From a virus: DNA of 6,214 nucleotides. Where the stretch lies: the IMG/VR virus record IMGVR_UViG_3300045988_026359, positions 1 to 6,214 of that record. One strand, 5' to 3'. Position 1 is the stretch's first letter; every line of letters begins with the position of its first letter. Shown here piece by piece: positions 1 through 6,214 of the stretch. The position numbers were made by a program, and so were the translations under genes. Under the pieces are notes generated by a model. It had not been told where the DNA came from. It did no database searches and worked only from the letters and a program-made list of their open reading frames with translations.

Positions 1-55
1 CAGCAGACGTCATATAGTCCGTCATCTGAGTAAACGCCTGAGGAAGAGCGCGAGA
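1..55. repeat. Terminal direct repeat, copy 1; circular-genome closure overlap
   Basis: The 55 nt cagcagacgtcatatagtccgtcatctgagtaaacgcctgaggaagagcgcgaga at 1..55 are identical, base for base, to 6160..6214. The capsid reading frame runs through the junction without interruption. Confidence 0.97.
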
Positions 56-304
56 AATCAAGCGTAACGGCACAGCATAAAAGTCATAATACTCTTTAAT
101 ACGAGTATATGCAGCCGTATTAACGGGAACAGTACGAGTAAACCACTCAGAAGAAATACGATATTTGTTACCAGGAATAGCAATCTGCCAATAACAAGGA
201 AGGATCTCTCCGACTTTTGCCGTAAATAGTTTTTTGCTAGACAAATCAAAGGAAGAGCGATGAACGGCAATTTTCGCTCGATCCAACGGATTAAAATCAC
301 TCAT
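1..304 (-). CDS. VP1: Major capsid protein VP1 (phiX174 F homologue), N-terminal segment; continues across the circular junction into 4730..6214
   Basis: My hand translation of the reverse complement from the ATG at 302..304 gives MSDFNPLDRAKIAVHRSSFDLSSKKLFTAKVGEILPCYWQIAIPGNKYRISSEWFTRTVPVNTAAYTRIKEYYDFYAVPLRLISRALPQAFTQMTDYMTSA with no stop before position 1. It joins in frame to the 484-aa ORF, since 6184 is equivalent to 25 and both are 1 mod 3. The N-terminal pattern R-S-x-F-D-L-S ... K-x-G-E-L/I-x-P ... P-G-D/N ... R-T-x-P ... Y-D-F-x-x-V-P is typical of Microviridae capsid proteins. The ORF track misses this segment because it runs off the window edge. Confidence 0.93.
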   Translation of the reverse strand, partial: MSDFNPLDRAKIAVHRSSFDLSSKKLFTAKVGEILPCYWQIAIPGNKYRISSEWFTRTVPVNTAAYTRIKEYYDFYAVPLRLISRALPQAFTQMTDYMTSA

Positions 305-325
305 AAATAATTAAAAATTAACAAG

Positions 326-2146
326 TTAAATCATCTGGTTAAATATATCATTCGCGTCATTAAGCTTCTTATGCTTGATCATATCGCGGCAGAAGGTAGC
401 AGCACGGAAATCAAGACATCTTTGTAAATCGCTACTTTGCCTACTATCATAGGCACTTCTTGTATCGGGTTTCGCGGATTTGATGTAATTACAAGCCGCG
501 AGAAATGGGATTCGGGGGTCATCAAACGGAACGCATACCTGTTCTTTAATGGGACGAACAAATCCGTCTGCATATTCTCCGTCTTCTCCGATACCAATGG
601 TCGCCATTTCGCATCCTTCGGCTGGTACATAGAAATACCGAAGCATAGGGGCTGGCAAAGTCTGTTGTATTCGCAACGAATCACACATTCGTACATAGTC
701 CGCTTTCTTTTCATATTCTATTCCAGTTTTGAGGATAAAATCAATACGACTGGCATAAGAATCAAGATTGCCACCAATGGGAGGCAAATGCCAGTTCCTA
801 AGGAACTTACTGACATAAAGGAATAGCCGATATAACTTATTAATATAAGATTCAATATCGACATCAGAAGAACTGTTACAGAGCCTAGTAAGGCACCGAG
901 CATTATGTAATATAATTTCGTCTTCATTGGGTAAATGATGATTCAATGTAAGATACTGATAATAAGCACGAACAATAGAAAGGACAGAATCAGAATCATA
1001 ATCTATGATACCGAACCTTGCAATTCTTTTTGGCGCGCTTGCAACAGCTCGAATAATTCCAGCAATCGCAATAGCATCGTCATAACGAGCACTTGAGAAT
1101 CGGGGGAGTAAGGTACGGATATACGACATGGGGGGAGTTGAGTTAACACTAATCCCGTTGAAGTTATAGATTCGTCCATTAATGACAGAATCGATCTTTT
1201 GTTCAATCGCGTGATAGATGTCTTCACTCTCCTCAAAAACCTCGCCTTTCTCAAAAAATCCAATAGACGCTCTTTGGCGGGGTTTAAACGCACGACATGA
1301 TCTATATAACAGGGGAGTAGAGCAAGAGCTATTAATGTAACCCGCAACGTACGATGCAGCTCCACCGCGGGAAGTCTGGAAATCTGAACGACCGAGCTTC
1401 CAACTCTTATCATGACACTGTCGTAATACCTTTGGGATCTGTTCCGAGTTTGTGAATAGTAAGATATGATAATGCGGGCGGAAATGGACTGGTCCATATT
1501 CACCCACAGCGTAGAAATGTAACGTCTCATAAGAACCTAAAACCGTTTTTAAATGTTTACGCAATCGTTTAATATAATTCTGAACATCAACATAATTCAA
1601 ATAAGGGATAAGATTATCTCCGTATCTAGCGGAAAGTTCTCCTTCTTTACCGTAAGGCGTAGCGGACTGCGTCTTAGCAATAAAGGAACGGATAGCATCC
1701 ATAGAAAGAAACCAATTATCCTTAACCGGTTCATGCTGACCTGATTCACGGTTATACGGAACTGTACCCTGTACTTGTGTAAAGTATATATGACGCAATT
1801 GTTGTGAATCTGAGCAACTATACTCGGATACCGGGACACACGAATGTTTTTCATAACCATAAACAAAACCGGAATCACTTAAAACATCGTCGTATTCAGA
1901 GTGGTGCACCTCGCAATTAAACAACGGAATGTGCTCATTATCATAGGTGAGCGTAACAAACCAACAATGTTCGAAGGCACTTCCAGCGGTCTTCACACGC
2001 ATAGACGCCTTTTGAGCTCGCTTATGGATACAATAGTCGCATTGACCACAATCTACAGCGATACGCTTACCCGTATATCTGTTGGTAATAAATGAGCGAT
2101 GCTGACAATGATCAGCAGCTTTAAGCAACTCCGGTGTATATTTCAT
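326..2146 (-). CDS. VP4: Replication initiation protein VP4 (HUH rolling-circle endonuclease, phiX174 A homologue), 606 aa
   Basis: N-terminal Cys cluster CGQCDYC. Motif I FVTLTY at 1943..1960. KRLRK box. Motif II RPHYHILLF, with H-Y-H at 1466..1474. Motif III with two Tyr three residues apart, YVAGYINS (Y-V-A-G-Y at 1337..1351), comparable to the phiX174 A active-site Y-x-x-x-Y. I verified all of these by translating the stated coordinates by hand. Confidence 0.93.
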   Translation of the reverse strand: MKYTPELLKAADHCQHRSFITNRYTGKRIAVDCGQCDYCIHKRAQKASMRVKTAGSAFEHCWFVTLTYDNEHIPLFNCEVHHSEYDDVLSDSGFVYGYEKHSCVPVSEYSCSDSQQLRHIYFTQVQGTVPYNRESGQHEPVKDNWFLSMDAIRSFIAKTQSATPYGKEGELSARYGDNLIPYLNYVDVQNYIKRLRKHLKTVLGSYETLHFYAVGEYGPVHFRPHYHILLFTNSEQIPKVLRQCHDKSWKLGRSDFQTSRGGAASYVAGYINSSCSTPLLYRSCRAFKPRQRASIGFFEKGEVFEESEDIYHAIEQKIDSVINGRIYNFNGISVNSTPPMSYIRTLLPRFSSARYDDAIAIAGIIRAVASAPKRIARFGIIDYDSDSVLSIVRAYYQYLTLNHHLPNEDEIILHNARCLTRLCNSSSDVDIESYINKLYRLFLYVSKFLRNWHLPPIGGNLDSYASRIDFILKTGIEYEKKADYVRMCDSLRIQQTLPAPMLRYFYVPAEGCEMATIGIGEDGEYADGFVRPIKEQVCVPFDDPRIPFLAACNYIKSAKPDTRSAYDSRQSSDLQRCLDFRAATFCRDMIKHKKLNDANDIFNQMI

Positions 2147-2151
2147 AATTA

Positions 2152-2457
2152 TTATCTTTTATCAATCACTTGGCGACGACTACGCGGACCAAACGAAACA
2201 TGAATAAAACCAGAGTAAATGATAAGTTGGTCAAAAGGAGAAGCATAATCAGAATAACTATGAATCAACTCAAGCAACTTACTAAAACCAGTAGAACCGT
2301 AAGGTTTGATATCAATAGCTTCACCTATCAGATGTTGAGAATTAGGAGCGCCATTACAAGCCTTGTTCTGTTCAGGAGTACGCCTCGCACTAGTCACCGT
2401 AAAATGAGCGTTAGAATAAAGCAAATACTCAAGGAAACACATAAGGGAATAGTTCAT
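2152..2457 (-). CDS. Peptidase M15 family (Peptidase_M15_3 / LAS-type zinc D-Ala-D-Ala peptidase-like) cell-wall hydrolase, 101 aa; candidate endolysin
   Basis: The sequence ...VTSARRTPEQNKACNGAPNSQHLIGEAIDI... contains the S-x-H-x-x-G-x-A-x-D zinc-binding signature exactly (SQHLIGEAID, 2311..2340). It is preceded by the S-x-R-T/S-P-E-x-N segment typical of this family. The distal His sits in FIHVS (His at 2200..2202). The start ATG overlaps the stop of the upstream small ORF (TTATGA). The stop lies 5 nt before the VP4 ATG. Confidence 0.88.
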   Translation of the reverse strand: MNYSLMCFLEYLLYSNAHFTVTSARRTPEQNKACNGAPNSQHLIGEAIDIKPYGSTGFSKLLELIHSYSDYASPFDQLIIYSGFIHVSFGPRSRRQVIDKR

Positions 2458-2537
2458 AATCCGATAGCATTAAGAATGTAACCAAGCGCAGCAGAAACAG
2501 CACCAATTATAATTTTCCAAATATTATTACTTTTCAT
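2454..2537 (-). CDS. Small hydrophobic micro-ORF, 27 aa (MKSNNIWKIIIGAVSAALGYILNAIGL), with one predicted transmembrane helix; possible holin-like or membrane partner of the peptidase
   Basis: The ATG at 2535..2537 overlaps the last codons of the 64-aa ORF (overlap 2527..2537). Its TGA overlaps the peptidase ATG (ATGA at 2454..2457). It has a short polar N-terminus followed by about 21 uncharged, mostly hydrophobic residues. It is the 3' part of the 74-aa frame 2454..2678. Support is contextual only, because the ORF is too short for composition statistics. Confidence 0.35.
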   Translation of the reverse strand: MKSNNIWKIIIGAVSAALGYILNAIGL

Positions 2538-2721
2538 CAGCTTGAGTTTTAAGTTCGACAAAGTCATTTTCTTCTTTAATTGAATCCACAATAACAATAA
2601 GACCCAACGAAGAAACTCGCTCAGAATAATATCCAAGATCATCCAAAGAATTGACAATATAAGGCGGTATGACATCACGACCAGTCTGTTTTTCTTTAAG
2701 GGAAATAATAAATTTCAGCAT
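2527..2721 (-). CDS. Hypothetical protein, 64 aa, acidic
   Basis: It is the first ORF downstream of the long non-coding region on the coding strand. Its composition looks like a balanced globular protein (MLKFIISLKEKQTGRDVIPPYIVNSLDDLGYYSERVSSLGLIVIVDSIKEENDFVELKTQADEK). It packs tightly against the following ORFs. I recognise no motif in it. Confidence 0.5.
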   Translation of the reverse strand: MLKFIISLKEKQTGRDVIPPYIVNSLDDLGYYSERVSSLGLIVIVDSIKEENDFVELKTQADEK

Positions 2722-2772
2722 AATTGTAAAATTTTAAATGTTAATAATTTAACGAGTTGGTTTCTACAGGGG

Positions 2773-2803
2773 CAAAGGAAAGCATTATTTTCGAATAAAC
2801 AAA
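2773..2803 (-). promoter_or_regulatory. Candidate Bacteroidota-type promoter (-33 TTTG, 19-nt spacer, -7-like TTCCTTTG)
   Basis: The minus strand reads TTTG (complement of 2800..2803), then 19 nt, then TTCCTTTG (complement of 2773..2780). The Bacteroides consensus is TTTG-N19-21-TAnnTTTG, so there is one mismatch (T for A). The -7-like box ends 51 nt upstream of the ATG at 2721, and the element lies downstream of the terminator-like hairpin. The call depends on a host assignment that is itself inferred. Confidence 0.25.
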
Positions 2804-2868
2804 ATATTTCGGAGTTTTTTATTCTACGGTTAGGGTGTGAGTTGTGCGTTTATGGACAAGAGAGACCG

Positions 2869-2891
2869 AATTTGAGATGATAACTCAAATT
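2869..2891. repeat. Inverted repeat / stem-loop (8-bp stem, 7-nt loop)
   Basis: aatttgag (2869..2876) pairs perfectly with ctcaaatt (2884..2891), with loop atgataa. It is flanked by a further 7-bp complementarity, agttgtg (2840..2846) with cacaact (2901..2907). Confidence 0.6.
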
Positions 2892-2924
2892 TCCTCCGGA
2901 CACAACTAGGGGCTTCGCTTGATT

Positions 2925-2966
2925 AAAACAAAAAAAAGTCCTAGATCCATTACTAATAGATCCAGG
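2925..2966 (-). terminator. Intrinsic-terminator-like hairpin followed by a T-tract on the coding strand
   Basis: The minus strand reads CCTGGATC-tattagtaatg-GATCTAGG-AC-TTTTTTTTGTTTT. The stem pairs 2959..2966 with 2940..2947. It has 8 pairs, one of which is G:T(U) on the minus strand but an A:C mismatch on the plus strand, so the structure favours the coding strand. The loop is 11 nt. The T8-G-T4 tract is the complement of 2925..2937. Confidence 0.5.
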
Positions 2967-2996
2967 GCGTGGATGCATACAAAGGTGTATAGGCAC

Positions 2997-3018
2997 GGCA
3001 GGTCAGATAGAACCTGCC
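2997..3018. repeat. Inverted repeat / stem-loop (7-bp stem, 8-nt loop)
   Basis: ggcaggt (2997..3003) pairs perfectly with acctgcc (3012..3018), with loop cagataga. Confidence 0.6.
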
Positions 3019-3043
3019 TTTGCGCACCTACGTGCTAAAATAC

Positions 3044-3077
3044 CGAAGCGAAACGCTTCTCCAAGGAAGTCGCTTCG
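3044..3077. repeat. Nested or alternative stem-loops built from GAAGCG/CGCTTC repeats
   Basis: Inner hairpin: gaagcg (3045..3050), aaa loop, cgcttc (3054..3059). Competing outer helix: cgaagcga (3044..3051) with tcgcttcg (3070..3077), 8 bp, plus cttc (3056..3059) with gaag (3066..3069). A further gcttcgct copy sits at 2912..2919, matching 3072..3079. Confidence 0.6.
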
Positions 3078-3103
3078 CTCCGTTTTATAAAGGCCCTACG
3101 CGG

Positions 3104-3136
3104 GCGGCGGGTGTATATCGCTCAAACGCCGCGATA
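3104..3136. repeat. GC-rich stem-loop immediately downstream of VP2, with two mutually exclusive pairings
   Basis: gcggcg (3104..3109) pairs with cgccgc (3127..3132): 6 G:C pairs and a 17-nt loop. Alternatively tatcgc (3116..3121) pairs with gcgata (3131..3136): 6 bp and a 9-nt loop. It is the GC-richest patch in the window. Confidence 0.55.
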
Positions 3137-3154
3137 GGCTTTTAGTCCTGAAGA

Positions 3155-4729: not shown

Positions 4730-6214
4730 TTAATAAGGTAAACCATTTCTATCCAAGTTCTGAACAGCATAAACCTGGAAATTAACATTACACAACAACT
4801 GGTCATAAGCAACGGAACAGTTCTGACCAGAAACCTGGGGATCAAAAATAGAGTTCAATTGCTGAGGACGAACTTTCATTGACCGATAAGACCAAGTACC
4901 AGAAGAAGTCAAAACATCCCAACCGTCAACAGGGGCAGACCAAGACTGATACGCCATACCAGGACGAAACGCAGCGTGAACAGTATCAATATTAGACTTC
5001 CATTGCCAGTACCGAAGATTATAACCAATAGAACCAGAAACGGAACGAGACGGGTTATTCTGTAAGTTCAAAGCAGGGACAGGCTGCATACCCAACTGAT
5101 CGAACGCAGGTTGGGGGAAATCAGTAATAGAAGTAACAGTCAACTGAGGATTTTGACCAGTCAAACTCCAGTCAACCATAGGAACAGCATGATATACACA
5201 CATAATCACTTGATGTTCAGCGCCACAATCATAAGTCAGCGTATGTCCAGACTGAGAACCAACGCCTTTACCAGCGATCACGGCTTGAGACCTGTCAGAC
5301 TCTAAGTTGGTATTCAAGACTTCATTGATATTGATCACATTAGACCAACCTCCAATATAATGAGCGTGATTTCCCATATATTCAGGAGCTTCAATTCCGA
5401 ATTGAGCCCGCATCTGATCCGAGTAATCCTTACTACTGAATTGAACTACCTCTTTCCAGCGCTGTAAGTATTCAGTTGCACGAATTGCAAGGGCAGAAAG
5501 ATCGGCAGAAACATAAGCAGAACGTGCAGAAGGAGAAGTACTATCAGACTGCACATTATTAGAATCAGCAAGATTTGAAAGACCTGAAGCCGGAGATTGA
5601 ATGTTTTCATCAGGGCTAAATACGACACGGTTAGAAACGAATGCACTAGAGTGAGAAGGCAAAACAGCTACACCACCGTACTGACTGCGCGGCAAAATAC
5701 CCATAAAGTAATCTTTCGGATAATTAGAATAACGAAGCTGAAGCATTTCGGGAGCGAGTAGCAATTGAGATTTACCGTCCCAATAATCTACATTATATGC
5801 ATAAGCCAGGTGCTTTTCCCATTGAGAGTCAGAGAAGAAATCATAGTAGATCTTCTGATAAGACAACAACGGAAGAAGATTCACAGTTTGACTAACAGAA
5901 TAAATCAAAGGATTCAACGTATCTTCAAGAGACTTAATCCCTAAATAAGATTCAGTAATAGTAGCTTTAGCAGTATTCGAAGACGCAAGGAAAGAACCAT
6001 ATCCAAGCATGTCTAATACCTTAGAGGCACCATAGACATAAGGGAGACCAGCATCATCAAAGACATCCTTATTACTAATCGACTGAAGACTCAGCGACAA
6101 CAAGTTCAACGTTGTATTCGGTACAGAAGTCAACATCTCGGTGTTAGCAGTGTTACTAACAGCAGACGTCATATAGTCCGTCATCTGAGTAAACGCCTGA
6201 GGAAGAGCGCGAGA
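4730..6214 (-). CDS. VP1: Major capsid protein VP1, C-terminal segment; the full protein is 577 aa (56..304 plus 4730..6214, stop TAA at 4730..4732)
   Basis: The frame is open from the window end down to 4730. The Met at 6184 used by the ORF track is internal (residue 94). Motifs shared by Microviridae F/VP1 proteins are present: LPLLSYQKIYYDFF, YPKDYFMGILP, LSALAIRATEYLQRWKE, RAQFGIEAPEYMGN..YIGG and AGKGVG. Confidence 0.95.
   Translation of the reverse strand, partial: SRALPQAFTQMTDYMTSAVSNTANTEMLTSVPNTTLNLLSLSLQSISNKDVFDDAGLPYVYGASKVLDMLGYGSFLASSNTAKATITESYLGIKSLEDTLNPLIYSVSQTVNLLPLLSYQKIYYDFFSDSQWEKHLAYAYNVDYWDGKSQLLLAPEMLQLRYSNYPKDYFMGILPRSQYGGVAVLPSHSSAFVSNRVVFSPDENIQSPASGLSNLADSNNVQSDSTSPSARSAYVSADLSALAIRATEYLQRWKEVVQFSSKDYSDQMRAQFGIEAPEYMGNHAHYIGGWSNVININEVLNTNLESDRSQAVIAGKGVGSQSGHTLTYDCGAEHQVIMCVYHAVPMVDWSLTGQNPQLTVTSITDFPQPAFDQLGMQPVPALNLQNNPSRSVSGSIGYNLRYWQWKSNIDTVHAAFRPGMAYQSWSAPVDGWDVLTSSGTWSYRSMKVRPQQLNSIFDPQVSGQNCSVAYDQLLCNVNFQVYAVQNLDRNGLPY
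6160..6214. repeat. Terminal direct repeat, copy 2; circular-genome closure overlap
   Basis: Exact 55-nt duplicate of 1..55. This gives a unit genome length of 6159 nt. An exact end overlap of fixed length is what a circular contig written out linearly looks like. Confidence 0.97.

Follow-up and report, generated by a model that had tools for sequence, protein, structure and literature searches.

We analysed the 6214-nucleotide (nt) stretch of IMG/VR virus record IMGVR_UViG_3300045988_026359 (the whole stretch is termed the window), the complete circular genome of a microvirus whose genes all lie on the minus strand. A three-gene module, comprising orf64, a small membrane-protein gene, and an M15 peptidase gene, separates the pilot-protein gene from the replication-initiator (Rep) gene. 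The small gene, the subject of this report, had been proposed from the letters of the window alone to encode a holin-like partner of the peptidase, overprinted on orf64 (the original prediction). The module comprises the following features, where ORF denotes open reading frame and aa denotes amino acids:

2454..2537, minus strand: core of the small ORF (27 aa and a stop), intact in every group-1 genome examined
2454..2675, minus strand: putative long isoform, 73 aa, first ATG at 2675..2673, codons 1–46 overprinted in the +1 frame on orf64
2527..2721, minus strand: orf64, the 64-aa gene hosting the overprinting, with a frame-0 coding signature
2527..2537, minus strand: 11-nt overlap between the orf64 end and the small ORF start (..GAT GAA AAG TAA / ATG AAA AGT AA.)
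2454..2457, minus strand: ATGA overlap between the small ORF stop (TGA, 2456..2454) and the peptidase start (ATG, 2457..2455)
2152..2457, minus strand: 101-aa signal-less zinc peptidase, Peptidase_M15_3 / PHROG 894 endolysin by Pfam and PHROG profile matches

Read from the ATG at 2537, the coding strand gives the predicted 27-codon product, MKSNNIWKIIIGAVSAALGYILNAIGL, a putative single-pass membrane peptide that has a Lys/Asn head, a Trp, and then a small-residue-rich helix (IIGAVSAALGY). Its last 24 codons fill an apparent 69-nt intergenic gap between orf64 and the peptidase gene; the gap has the same length in most GenBank relatives, and the small ORF is unannotated there in all of the GenBank relatives' records inspected. 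For comparison, 10 GenBank genomes were translated in three frames and 80 IMG/VR loci with a peptidase 64–89% identical were added; the group-1 alignment comprises 88 genomes. Among the 10 GenBank genomes, the frame of the small ORF hardly varies (M..N[IL]W[KR]IIIGAVSAALGY[IV]LN[AST][IL]GL*), and the remaining two frames of this DNA are not conserved. The ATG at 2537 is kept although the orf64 C-terminus varies (DEK, DNGK, QDGN, or KDEA), as it does in L008, L009, L011, and L012.

The 27-aa ORF is intact in 88/88 aligned genomes (start ATG in 87, GTG in 1), where 83 distinct nucleotide sequences give only 38 peptide variants. A Nei-Gojobori calculation gives proportions of synonymous and nonsynonymous differences (pS and pN) of 0.43 and 0.07 and a dN/dS of ~0.12, corresponding to strong purifying selection; the values for the peptidase are pS 0.50 and pN 0.15. 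Diversity by codon position (0.118/0.040/0.298) follows the textbook coding pattern. Judged by this conservation, the short ORF is almost certainly a gene. The contrary explanation, a chance open frame encoding a hydrophobic pseudo-protein from T-rich codons, draws on two properties of the genome, namely the frequency of open alternative frames and the hydrophobic +1 translations that result from T at third positions; the conservation and selection statistics, together with the peptidase gene, which has the same composition and contains stops at the expected rate, reduce its probability to a negligible level, and for the 27-aa ORF we rule it out.

At the downstream junction, the coding strand reads ...GGA TTA TGA AC, with the TGA of the small ORF overlapping the ATG of the peptidase gene as ATGA. 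The overlap, which the original prediction had placed at the end of the frame 2454..2678, is thus present in the window and recurs in 88/88 aligned group-1 genomes. ATGA is the classic signature of translational coupling, and, because the stop of the peptide overlaps the start of the peptidase, the two are predicted to be made as a coupled pair. In one further relative (L020, IMGVR_UViG_3300029238_000092, ~430–470), a 30-nt duplication of the small-ORF/peptidase junction has occurred, such that an intact peptide ORF is followed by a 10-codon remnant (MIILCNAIGL*) and then by the real peptidase start.

In the records of Dulem viruses 238, 243, and 226, whose peptidase frame is open back to an ATG, a 124-aa product annotated as 'peptidase' or 'hypothetical protein' crosses the gap in that frame. 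The gap DNA might accordingly be read as an N-terminal extension of the peptidase, giving a 124-aa protein, possibly a signal-anchored (SAR-type) endolysin. Against this reading, the window and L009 have stops in the peptidase frame, whose translation is unconserved (YLENYNWCCFCCAWLHS*, MEDYHWSCFRCSRLRLEYSWF) where the +1 frame is nearly invariant; in a sister clade (below), the corresponding peptide lies in any of the frames with respect to the peptidase, and stops intervene; and the database matches included no natural fusion of peptide and peptidase. Specifically, the hydrophobic segment lies out of the peptidase frame, contrary to what a signal-anchored endolysin requires. We therefore consider an N-terminally extended peptidase ruled out by frame analysis, its residual probability being very small; the first 23 codons of the 124-aa annotations (L008, PP511322; L011, PP511887; L013, PP511489) are probably read in the wrong frame, a misannotation that hides the peptide gene.

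The long frame, probably overprinted on orf64

The frame of the small ORF extends 46 codons upstream into orf64. The original prediction had read it from a first ATG at 2678 as 74 aa; the minus-strand frame 2454..2678 is indeed open and gives 74 aa from 2678, but the codon there is GTG, one codon upstream of the first ATG, which lies at 2675 and gives 73 aa. The 73-aa product comprises an N-terminal hydrophobic segment, a Lys-rich linker, and the 27-aa core. The frame had also been described as lying almost entirely inside the 64-aa ORF: the overlap exists but covers only 152 of 225 nt, the last 24 codons being outside. The first ATG lies 46 nt past the orf64 ATG in ~80/87 genomes, though the frame is often open for at least 100 nt further upstream, and the long product is 73 aa in 68/87 genomes. 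Gene callers have called the long ORF in 217 database clusters, mostly at 73 aa and all effectively unnamed.

The host gene of the overprinting, orf64, encodes an acidic product predicted to be a small beta-sheet protein. AlphaFold2 gives a three-stranded sheet with a predicted local distance difference test score (pLDDT) of 74, and a Foldseek search of the PDB gives no significant fold match (best E = 0.29). orf64 has no Pfam or PHROG match, and each of its 2623 database clusters is named hypothetical. Its nucleotide diversity (pi) by codon position is 0.176/0.080/0.231, and its pN/pS is 0.44.

Stop codons are strongly depleted in the +1 frame of orf64. With an expectation obtained by synonymous-codon resampling from pooled codon usage, 0.0044 stops per codon are observed and 0.063 expected, corresponding to 0.30 and 3.93 per genome, a ~13-fold depletion; nearly all of the observed stops fall at codons 2 and 8, upstream of the +1 ATG. 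No depletion is present in the peptidase gene (0.051 observed vs 0.048 expected per codon) or in the first third of Rep; the per-codon values for Rep are 0.023 and 0.030. For three lineages under 75% nucleotide identity, the chance of finding the frame open is 0.010, 0.050, and 0.044. Codon shuffling within orf64 was rejected as a null, being uninformative because orf64 already lacks stop-prone codons.

The depletion is visible in codon choice. In particular, Leu/Ile/Val codons ending in G make up 180/682 (26%) in orf64 before a codon starting with G, where they form a harmless TGG, and 1/467 (0.2%) before a codon starting with A, where they would form TGA; NTA codons make up 5/1149 before a purine vs 14/172 before a pyrimidine. 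The peptidase gene uses the stop-creating (unsafe) combinations freely (142/540 and 178/1003). When each column-codon type is counted once, to reduce phylogenetic pseudo-replication, the safe:unsafe ratio is 76:3 in orf64 vs 60:32 in the peptidase gene (Fisher P = 2e-7).

Synonymous variation in orf64 is reduced as well. Synonymous diversity is 0.19 vs 0.33 in both neighbouring genes, and third-position diversity is 0.23 vs 0.35 at equal third-position T content. Four-fold degenerate sites of orf64 that are unable to create stops have a mean pi of 0.19 (n = 13) vs 0.35 (n = 22; Mann-Whitney P = 0.006); for example, the third bases of a Pro-Pro pair, which encode the conserved Arg4-Leu5 of the long form, are constrained. 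Since sites that are neutral with respect to stops are constrained, we argue for constraint on the amino-acid sequence of the long form, and not on openness alone.

The long frame is not universal. Stops in it leave only the 27-aa form in L030 and L093 and a 62-aa form in L088, and the first ATG is missing in L048 and L051, which have 69 aa. Homologues with long-frame stops and an intact orf64, which the original prediction had named as evidence that would speak against overprinting, thus exist, but they amount to only 3 of ~90 clade genomes. In a sister clade with the same gene order, 13 +1 stops are observed vs 17.7 expected, with no depletion; this result is a negative control and a sign that the extension is clade-specific. 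From the three genomes with stops and the sister clade without selection, it follows that the 27-aa core is the indispensable unit.

Contrary to our initial expectation of rejecting overprinting, then, the long frame appears to be under selection, and, on the strength of these patterns, we consider it likely that it is both translated and selected. The prediction of overprinting on the 64-aa ORF thereby gains support from stop avoidance, reduced synonymous variation, and the conserved first ATG; the comparison with relatives, proposed with it as a check, found both an open alternative frame and constrained synonymous sites in orf64. Selection would keep the extension open, and two nested products, of 73 and 27 aa, are therefore possible.

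A narrower rival holds that only the 27-aa peptide is functional and that the 46 codons are kept stop-free so that ribosomes starting at 2675 reach the peptide/peptidase junction; the extension, without function of its own, would serve coupling or regulation in a host that dispenses with Shine-Dalgarno sites. We consider this distinctly unlikely. It would account for the poor conservation of the extension between lineages and for a hydrophobicity at the compositional null (below), for the sister clade and the three clade genomes that do without the extension, for the shorter database variants, and for the lack of a Shine-Dalgarno-like sequence before any window gene start that was read. It would leave unexplained the constraint on stop-neutral four-fold sites (0.19 vs 0.35, as at Arg4-Leu5) and the fact that the 27-aa ORF keeps its own conserved ATG.

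An exhaustive HMMER search of 1.84 billion representative proteins with a profile of the 73-aa product returned only 24 clusters, all of them clade members or chimeric or frameshifted calls; neither a link to other families nor a natural fusion of peptide and peptidase was among them. Some database matches start with the peptide and run on into unrelated sequence, not peptidase; shorter variants are also present.

Sister-clade and smalltalk-type peptides

In the sister clade, an equally conserved ORF, MKSETKSKIWSAIIAAAVSLLTSIAQIFS, is present in bajarodmic virus 410, Dulem viruses 257 and 236, mar62, and eight IMG/VR contigs. It always lies just upstream of the peptidase, with a varying spacer and in any of the three frames, with intervening stops. 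A programmed frameshift fusing peptide to peptidase was considered and rejected because of this variation in frame and spacer. The GATGAAAAGT junction is common to the window and the sister clade, where the upstream ORF has 57 aa and ends in DEK. A tblastn search with the sister-clade peptide gave no matches, for which the low-complexity filter is probably responsible.

Scans of Pfam, PHROGs, and NCBIfam with the 27-aa and 73-aa products of the window gave nothing significant; the best PHROG matches (E = 0.03–0.07) are to families of unknown function, and PHROG holin matches reach only E = 0.13. Peptides at the equivalent position in other microviruses are recognized. In bajarodmic virus 1034, a 31-aa ORF, MSTKNKTFETILRVIIAVASALAGAFGYSQF, located 25 nt upstream of a full-length 162-aa M15 peptidase, matches Pfam DUF6486 (E = 1.8e-11) and NCBIfam NF033879 'smalltalk protein' (E = 9e-10); the peptides in this position that pass the smalltalk hidden Markov model (HMM) comprise those of L108 (E = 9e-10) and L117 (Dulem virus 247; E = 1e-10).

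The window peptide itself has no match at E ≤ 10 to the smalltalk HMMs of Pfam and NCBIfam, and a jackhmmer search started from it, run on smalltalk proteins together with 10,219 six-frame ORF segments, converged within its own clade. Profile-profile alignment with hhalign links it to smalltalk end to end, over 26 columns anchored on the Trp (probability 75.5%, P = 2.4e-5), and the sister-clade peptides take ranks 4 and 5 among 1286 ORF segments scored with a smalltalk HMM (E = 0.06–0.13). The Dulem virus 247 peptide (..NVWRTILEVIGAVISALLGALGG..) looks intermediate between the window peptide and smalltalk, and Kyte-Doolittle/Hessa values are 2.03/+1.27 for the window peptide vs 2.31/+0.97 for smalltalk P0177. 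These comparisons suggest that the window peptide is distantly related to smalltalk or, failing that, closely analogous to it; because the HMMs and jackhmmer miss it and profile-profile alignment links it, we term it smalltalk-like, not a demonstrated member.

The likeness to smalltalk (NF033879; PF20096, DUF6486) comprises a length of ~30 aa, a Lys-rich head, a conserved Trp, and one small-residue-rich helix (..W..ILKVIIAVASAIAGALG.. in smalltalk, ..W K IIIGAVSA ALGY.. in the window), as well as an often-found 4-nt ATGA overlap with a signal-less murein hydrolase and the presence of members at the equivalent place in gut microviruses. The window peptide differs in falling below both HMMs, in being 3–5 residues shorter, and in having an M15 peptidase, not Amidase_2, as its partner; the 46-codon overprinted extension is found only in the window's clade. 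Neither a paper on DUF6486 nor a functional study of a smalltalk protein turned up in our literature search.

Database members of smalltalk are located in chromosomes of Bacteroidales (Phocaeicola, Bacteroides, Parabacteroides, Mediterranea, and others), with a recurrent gene order of VapE-like primase, DUF4248, HU-like protein, smalltalk, and Amidase_2. There, the smalltalk TGA overlaps the amidase ATG (TCG TTA TGA CGG), as in the window. A strict-pattern scan of one genome per GTDB species yielded 22 smalltalk genes: the next gene encodes a signal-less Amidase_2 in 8 (with a −4 overlap in 6), an RHS/SpvB-like protein of >1000 aa in 4, and a microviral Rep in 1.

Several loci with smalltalk genes have a layout of their own. 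In L118–L125, L146–L150, L155, and L172, all on Bacteroidales chromosomes, smalltalk lies 80–110 nt upstream of genes for SpvB/RHS/YD-repeat proteins of 1000–2000 aa and downstream of a divergent CI/LexA-type (Peptidase_S24) repressor and two small ORFs; the smalltalk-RHS arrangement is a toxin locus with SOS-like regulation. Homology to orf64 is absent from the small ORFs located before smalltalk in these bacterial toxin loci. In Dulem virus 247 (5902..6220), a 73-aa acidic ORF is immediately followed by the smalltalk ORF, an order that mirrors the layout of orf64 plus peptide. In integrated microviral prophages (L151–L153, from JGI contigs, and L175), a bona fide smalltalk gene, located directly before Rep, is the first gene; in L151, it adjoins the host uvrA gene. 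The smalltalk-bearing prophages suggest Bacteroidales hosts for such microviruses, and we infer a Bacteroidales host for the window virus. Unrelated hydrophobic ORFs of 35–40 aa occur after the pilot gene, 400–600 nt upstream of the peptidases, in bajarodmic viruses 66 and 850 (L110, L111).

A candidate membrane partner for the M15 peptidase

The peptidase of the window matches Pfam Peptidase_M15_3 with E = 4.4e-9 (36.9 bits vs a cut-off of 23.2 bits) and the endolysin family phrog_894 with E = 1.3e-16, and residues H42, D49, and H86, the H-x6-D...H zinc triad, are invariant in 87 genomes; no sequence match was found in the PDB. M15_3 peptidases were described in Microviridae as possible endolysins by Roux et al. 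2012 (PMC3394797), who remarked on the contrast with single-gene lysis and described no microviral holin, and peptidases are listed among lysis-associated accessory genes by Kirchberger et al. 2022 (PMC9239249). The original prediction was aware of no description of a holin/endolysin-type cassette in this family, and our literature search likewise found no holin or other membrane partner for a microviral peptidase.

We propose that the small gene and the peptidase form a holin/endolysin-like lysis pair, in which the small-gene product breaches the membrane; to this reading we assign an about even chance of being right. Late in infection, the peptide or peptides would insert into the cytoplasmic membrane and might oligomerize through the small-residue face (GAVSAALG), such that the membrane is breached or depolarized. 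The cytoplasmic peptidase would then reach the murein and cut peptide cross-links. Where both isoforms are made, the long and short forms might act as an effector/regulator pair, in the manner of dual-start holins. The nesting of two starts in one frame is reminiscent of holin/antiholin pairs with dual starts, such as lambda S105/S107.

In accord with this proposal, the small gene encodes a small protein with a predicted hydrophobic helix and adjoins the M15 peptidase gene through the ATGA overlap. The arrangement resembles tailed-phage cassettes, in which a small membrane gene likewise abuts a homologous signal-less M15 peptidase. In particular, peptidase homologues adjoin holins and spanins in Stenotrophomonas phage Siara, with the order peptidase-holin/antiholin-holin-spanins, and in Bacteroides phage BS-TP2, where holin and M15 endolysin genes have a 4-nt overlap. 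The window differs from these cassettes in the lack of sequence similarity to holins, in that no spanin equivalent was seen, and in being a 6.2-kb single-stranded DNA microvirus. The strongest, albeit indirect, argument for a functional partnership is that peptides of the smalltalk type are coupled to two unrelated murein hydrolases, M15 and Amidase_2.

The membrane character of the 73-aa form is uneven. With a 19-residue window, Kyte-Doolittle hydropathy peaks at 1.97 (residues 13–31) and 2.03 (residues 55–73), and simple Hessa-scale sums are +3.3 kcal/mol for the first segment and +1.3 kcal/mol for the C-terminal helix; with D, E, and R within it and a Hessa sum of +3.3, the first segment is a borderline membrane helix. 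The form has a net charge of +7, with 7 Lys in the linker. AlphaFold2, using a 52-sequence alignment, predicts helices at 2–49 and 51–71 (pLDDT 86.7, predicted template modelling score 0.41) and no clear hairpin, and a Foldseek search of BFVD with this model gave no match. The 7-Lys linker would, by the positive-inside rule, be a cytoplasmic loop, giving an N-out/C-out arrangement opposite to that of a class II holin. The class II topology of the original prediction is therefore not borne out, the absence of a charged tail and the marginal first helix pointing the same way.

Several observations weigh against the proposed lysis pair. Known holins have ~60–220 aa and a charged C-terminal tail; 27 aa is, to our knowledge, far below any characterized holin, and the charged tail is absent, the protein ending ...LNAIGL, inside or at the end of the helix. 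Helix 1 is only marginally hydrophobic, a level that synonymous resamples free of stops also reach (P = 0.65, 0.08, and 0.60 for three lineages). The extension thus sits at the compositional null for hydrophobicity, and the caution issued with the original prediction, that T-rich codons yield hydrophobic pseudo-proteins, stands for the overprinted half (P = 0.65). The peptidase, judged by its match to profile positions 42–107, lacks ~40 N-terminal residues of its tailed-phage homologues. To these are added the long-frame stops in the three clade genomes and the failure of the smalltalk HMMs and jackhmmer to connect the window peptide. Smalltalk-type peptides, moreover, occur in peptidase-less microviruses, namely bajarodmic virus 622 (directly upstream of Rep) and Dulem virus 247 (after Rep), neither of which gave a tblastn match to five diverse M15 peptidases; in the integrated microviral prophages L151 and L175 (Xylanibacter caecicola NZ_JABKKJ010000014); and, in bacteria, alone after HU-like genes or upstream of the giant RHS/SpvB-like proteins. 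Because of the peptidase-less microviruses, an obligate holin/endolysin tie is not established, and the function is not strictly peptidase-dependent.

These contexts underlie the main rival, in which the peptide has a peptidase-independent membrane function, such as single-gene lysis through a host envelope pathway (as for phiX174 E and MS2 L), superinfection exclusion, or cargo export, and the peptidase is a later accessory beside it. The rival is consistent with the bona fide smalltalk genes directly upstream of or after Rep in peptidase-less microviruses, with those before RHS/SpvB-like genes or alone after HU-like genes in bacteria, and with the sporadic, horizontally acquired nature of the peptidase (Roux et al. 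2012, PMC3394797; Kirchberger et al. 2022, PMC9239249). It has difficulty with the tight ATGA coupling to two unrelated enzyme families, and the peptide is more conserved than the downstream peptidase. We regard it as rather unlikely.

Two known systems bear comparison with the proposed pair. As in phiX174 (Bullavirinae), where E lies on D, a small upstream microvirus gene contains a membrane-protein frame at +1, and the hydrophobic part of that frame derives from T-rich third positions of the overlapped gene. E, however, is wholly embedded, whereas the window gene overlaps by its N-terminal 46 codons and has its conserved core outside; the window gene has a hydrolase as its partner and no sequence similarity to E. 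E acts alone, by inhibiting MraY (PMC3394797). Overprinted genes, known at least in Bullavirinae, were omitted by Kirchberger et al. 2022 (PMC9239249) as unverifiable by computation alone. The window gene differs from the second system, type I toxins, in lacking an antisense-RNA context and homology and in its phage late-gene context coupled to a hydrolase. Type I toxins such as TisB and Hok are membrane-depolarizing peptides of fewer than 50 aa, to which the window peptide is alike in size, single helix, and plausible depolarizing action.

More broadly, and tentatively, smalltalk-type peptides might constitute an unrecognized minimal (27–33 aa) holin-like class that passes signal-less murein hydrolases across the Bacteroidales inner membrane, the overprinted extension of the window's clade supplying a long/short pair that times lysis; we hold this generalization to be somewhat doubtful. 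Were it true, it would provide the first function for the widespread smalltalk family and would explain how microviruses other than phiX-like ones lyse their hosts. The M15 peptidase was proposed as an endolysin in 2012 with no means of crossing the membrane described, and the present analysis supplies a candidate partner gene. It also supplies statistical evidence for an overprinted gene outside Bullavirinae, and the recurrence of the coupled architecture with smalltalk and an unrelated amidase ties phage lysis to a common feature of gut-bacterial genomes. What is new is probably an unusually small effector of a lysis cassette, an overprinted microviral membrane gene linked to an uncharacterized bacterial peptide family, and the two-part lysis module has probably gone undescribed so far for Microviridae.

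The remainder of the genome

The window has a 55-nt exact terminal repeat (1..55 = 6160..6214), an assembly overlap of the circular genome, from which a circular unit length of ~6159 nt follows. Pfam identified three window proteins: the capsid (Phage_F), the replication initiator (REP_ORF2-G2P, 326..2146), and Peptidase_M15_3 (2152..2457). The terminal repeat implies that the capsid gene wraps around the ends, with its stop at 4730 and its start expected, by the 577-aa capsids of relatives, near the ATG at 303..301, so the 484-aa ORF 4730..6184 is a truncated reading. The nearest GenBank records are lemur, dog, and human 'Dulem virus' and Microviridae genomes, with 75–85% nucleotide identity.

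Upstream of orf64 lies a 433-nt non-coding region (2722..3154) with G+C-rich hairpins and terminator-like stems at 2966..2940 and 3059..3045 (minus strand), which may be an origin, promoter, or terminator module; Rfam gave no match anywhere in the window. Its block 3017..3148 is 81% identical to Dulem virus 226, the rest of whose genome has no megablast match to the window.

A second candidate overprinted gene is a 175-aa Arg/Lys-rich ORF at 1003..1530 (minus strand), in the +1 frame of Rep codons ~203–381. In 81 relatives, this stretch contains a mean of 0.23 stops vs 3.23 expected by synonymous resampling and is stop-free in 71/81; the control, Rep codons 0–203, contains 7.17 observed vs 7.12 expected. 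The ORF has no PHROG match, and its start (M[KR]RY.STLW) and stop position are kept in divergent relatives. Its location inside Rep recalls that of phiX174 B and K inside A.

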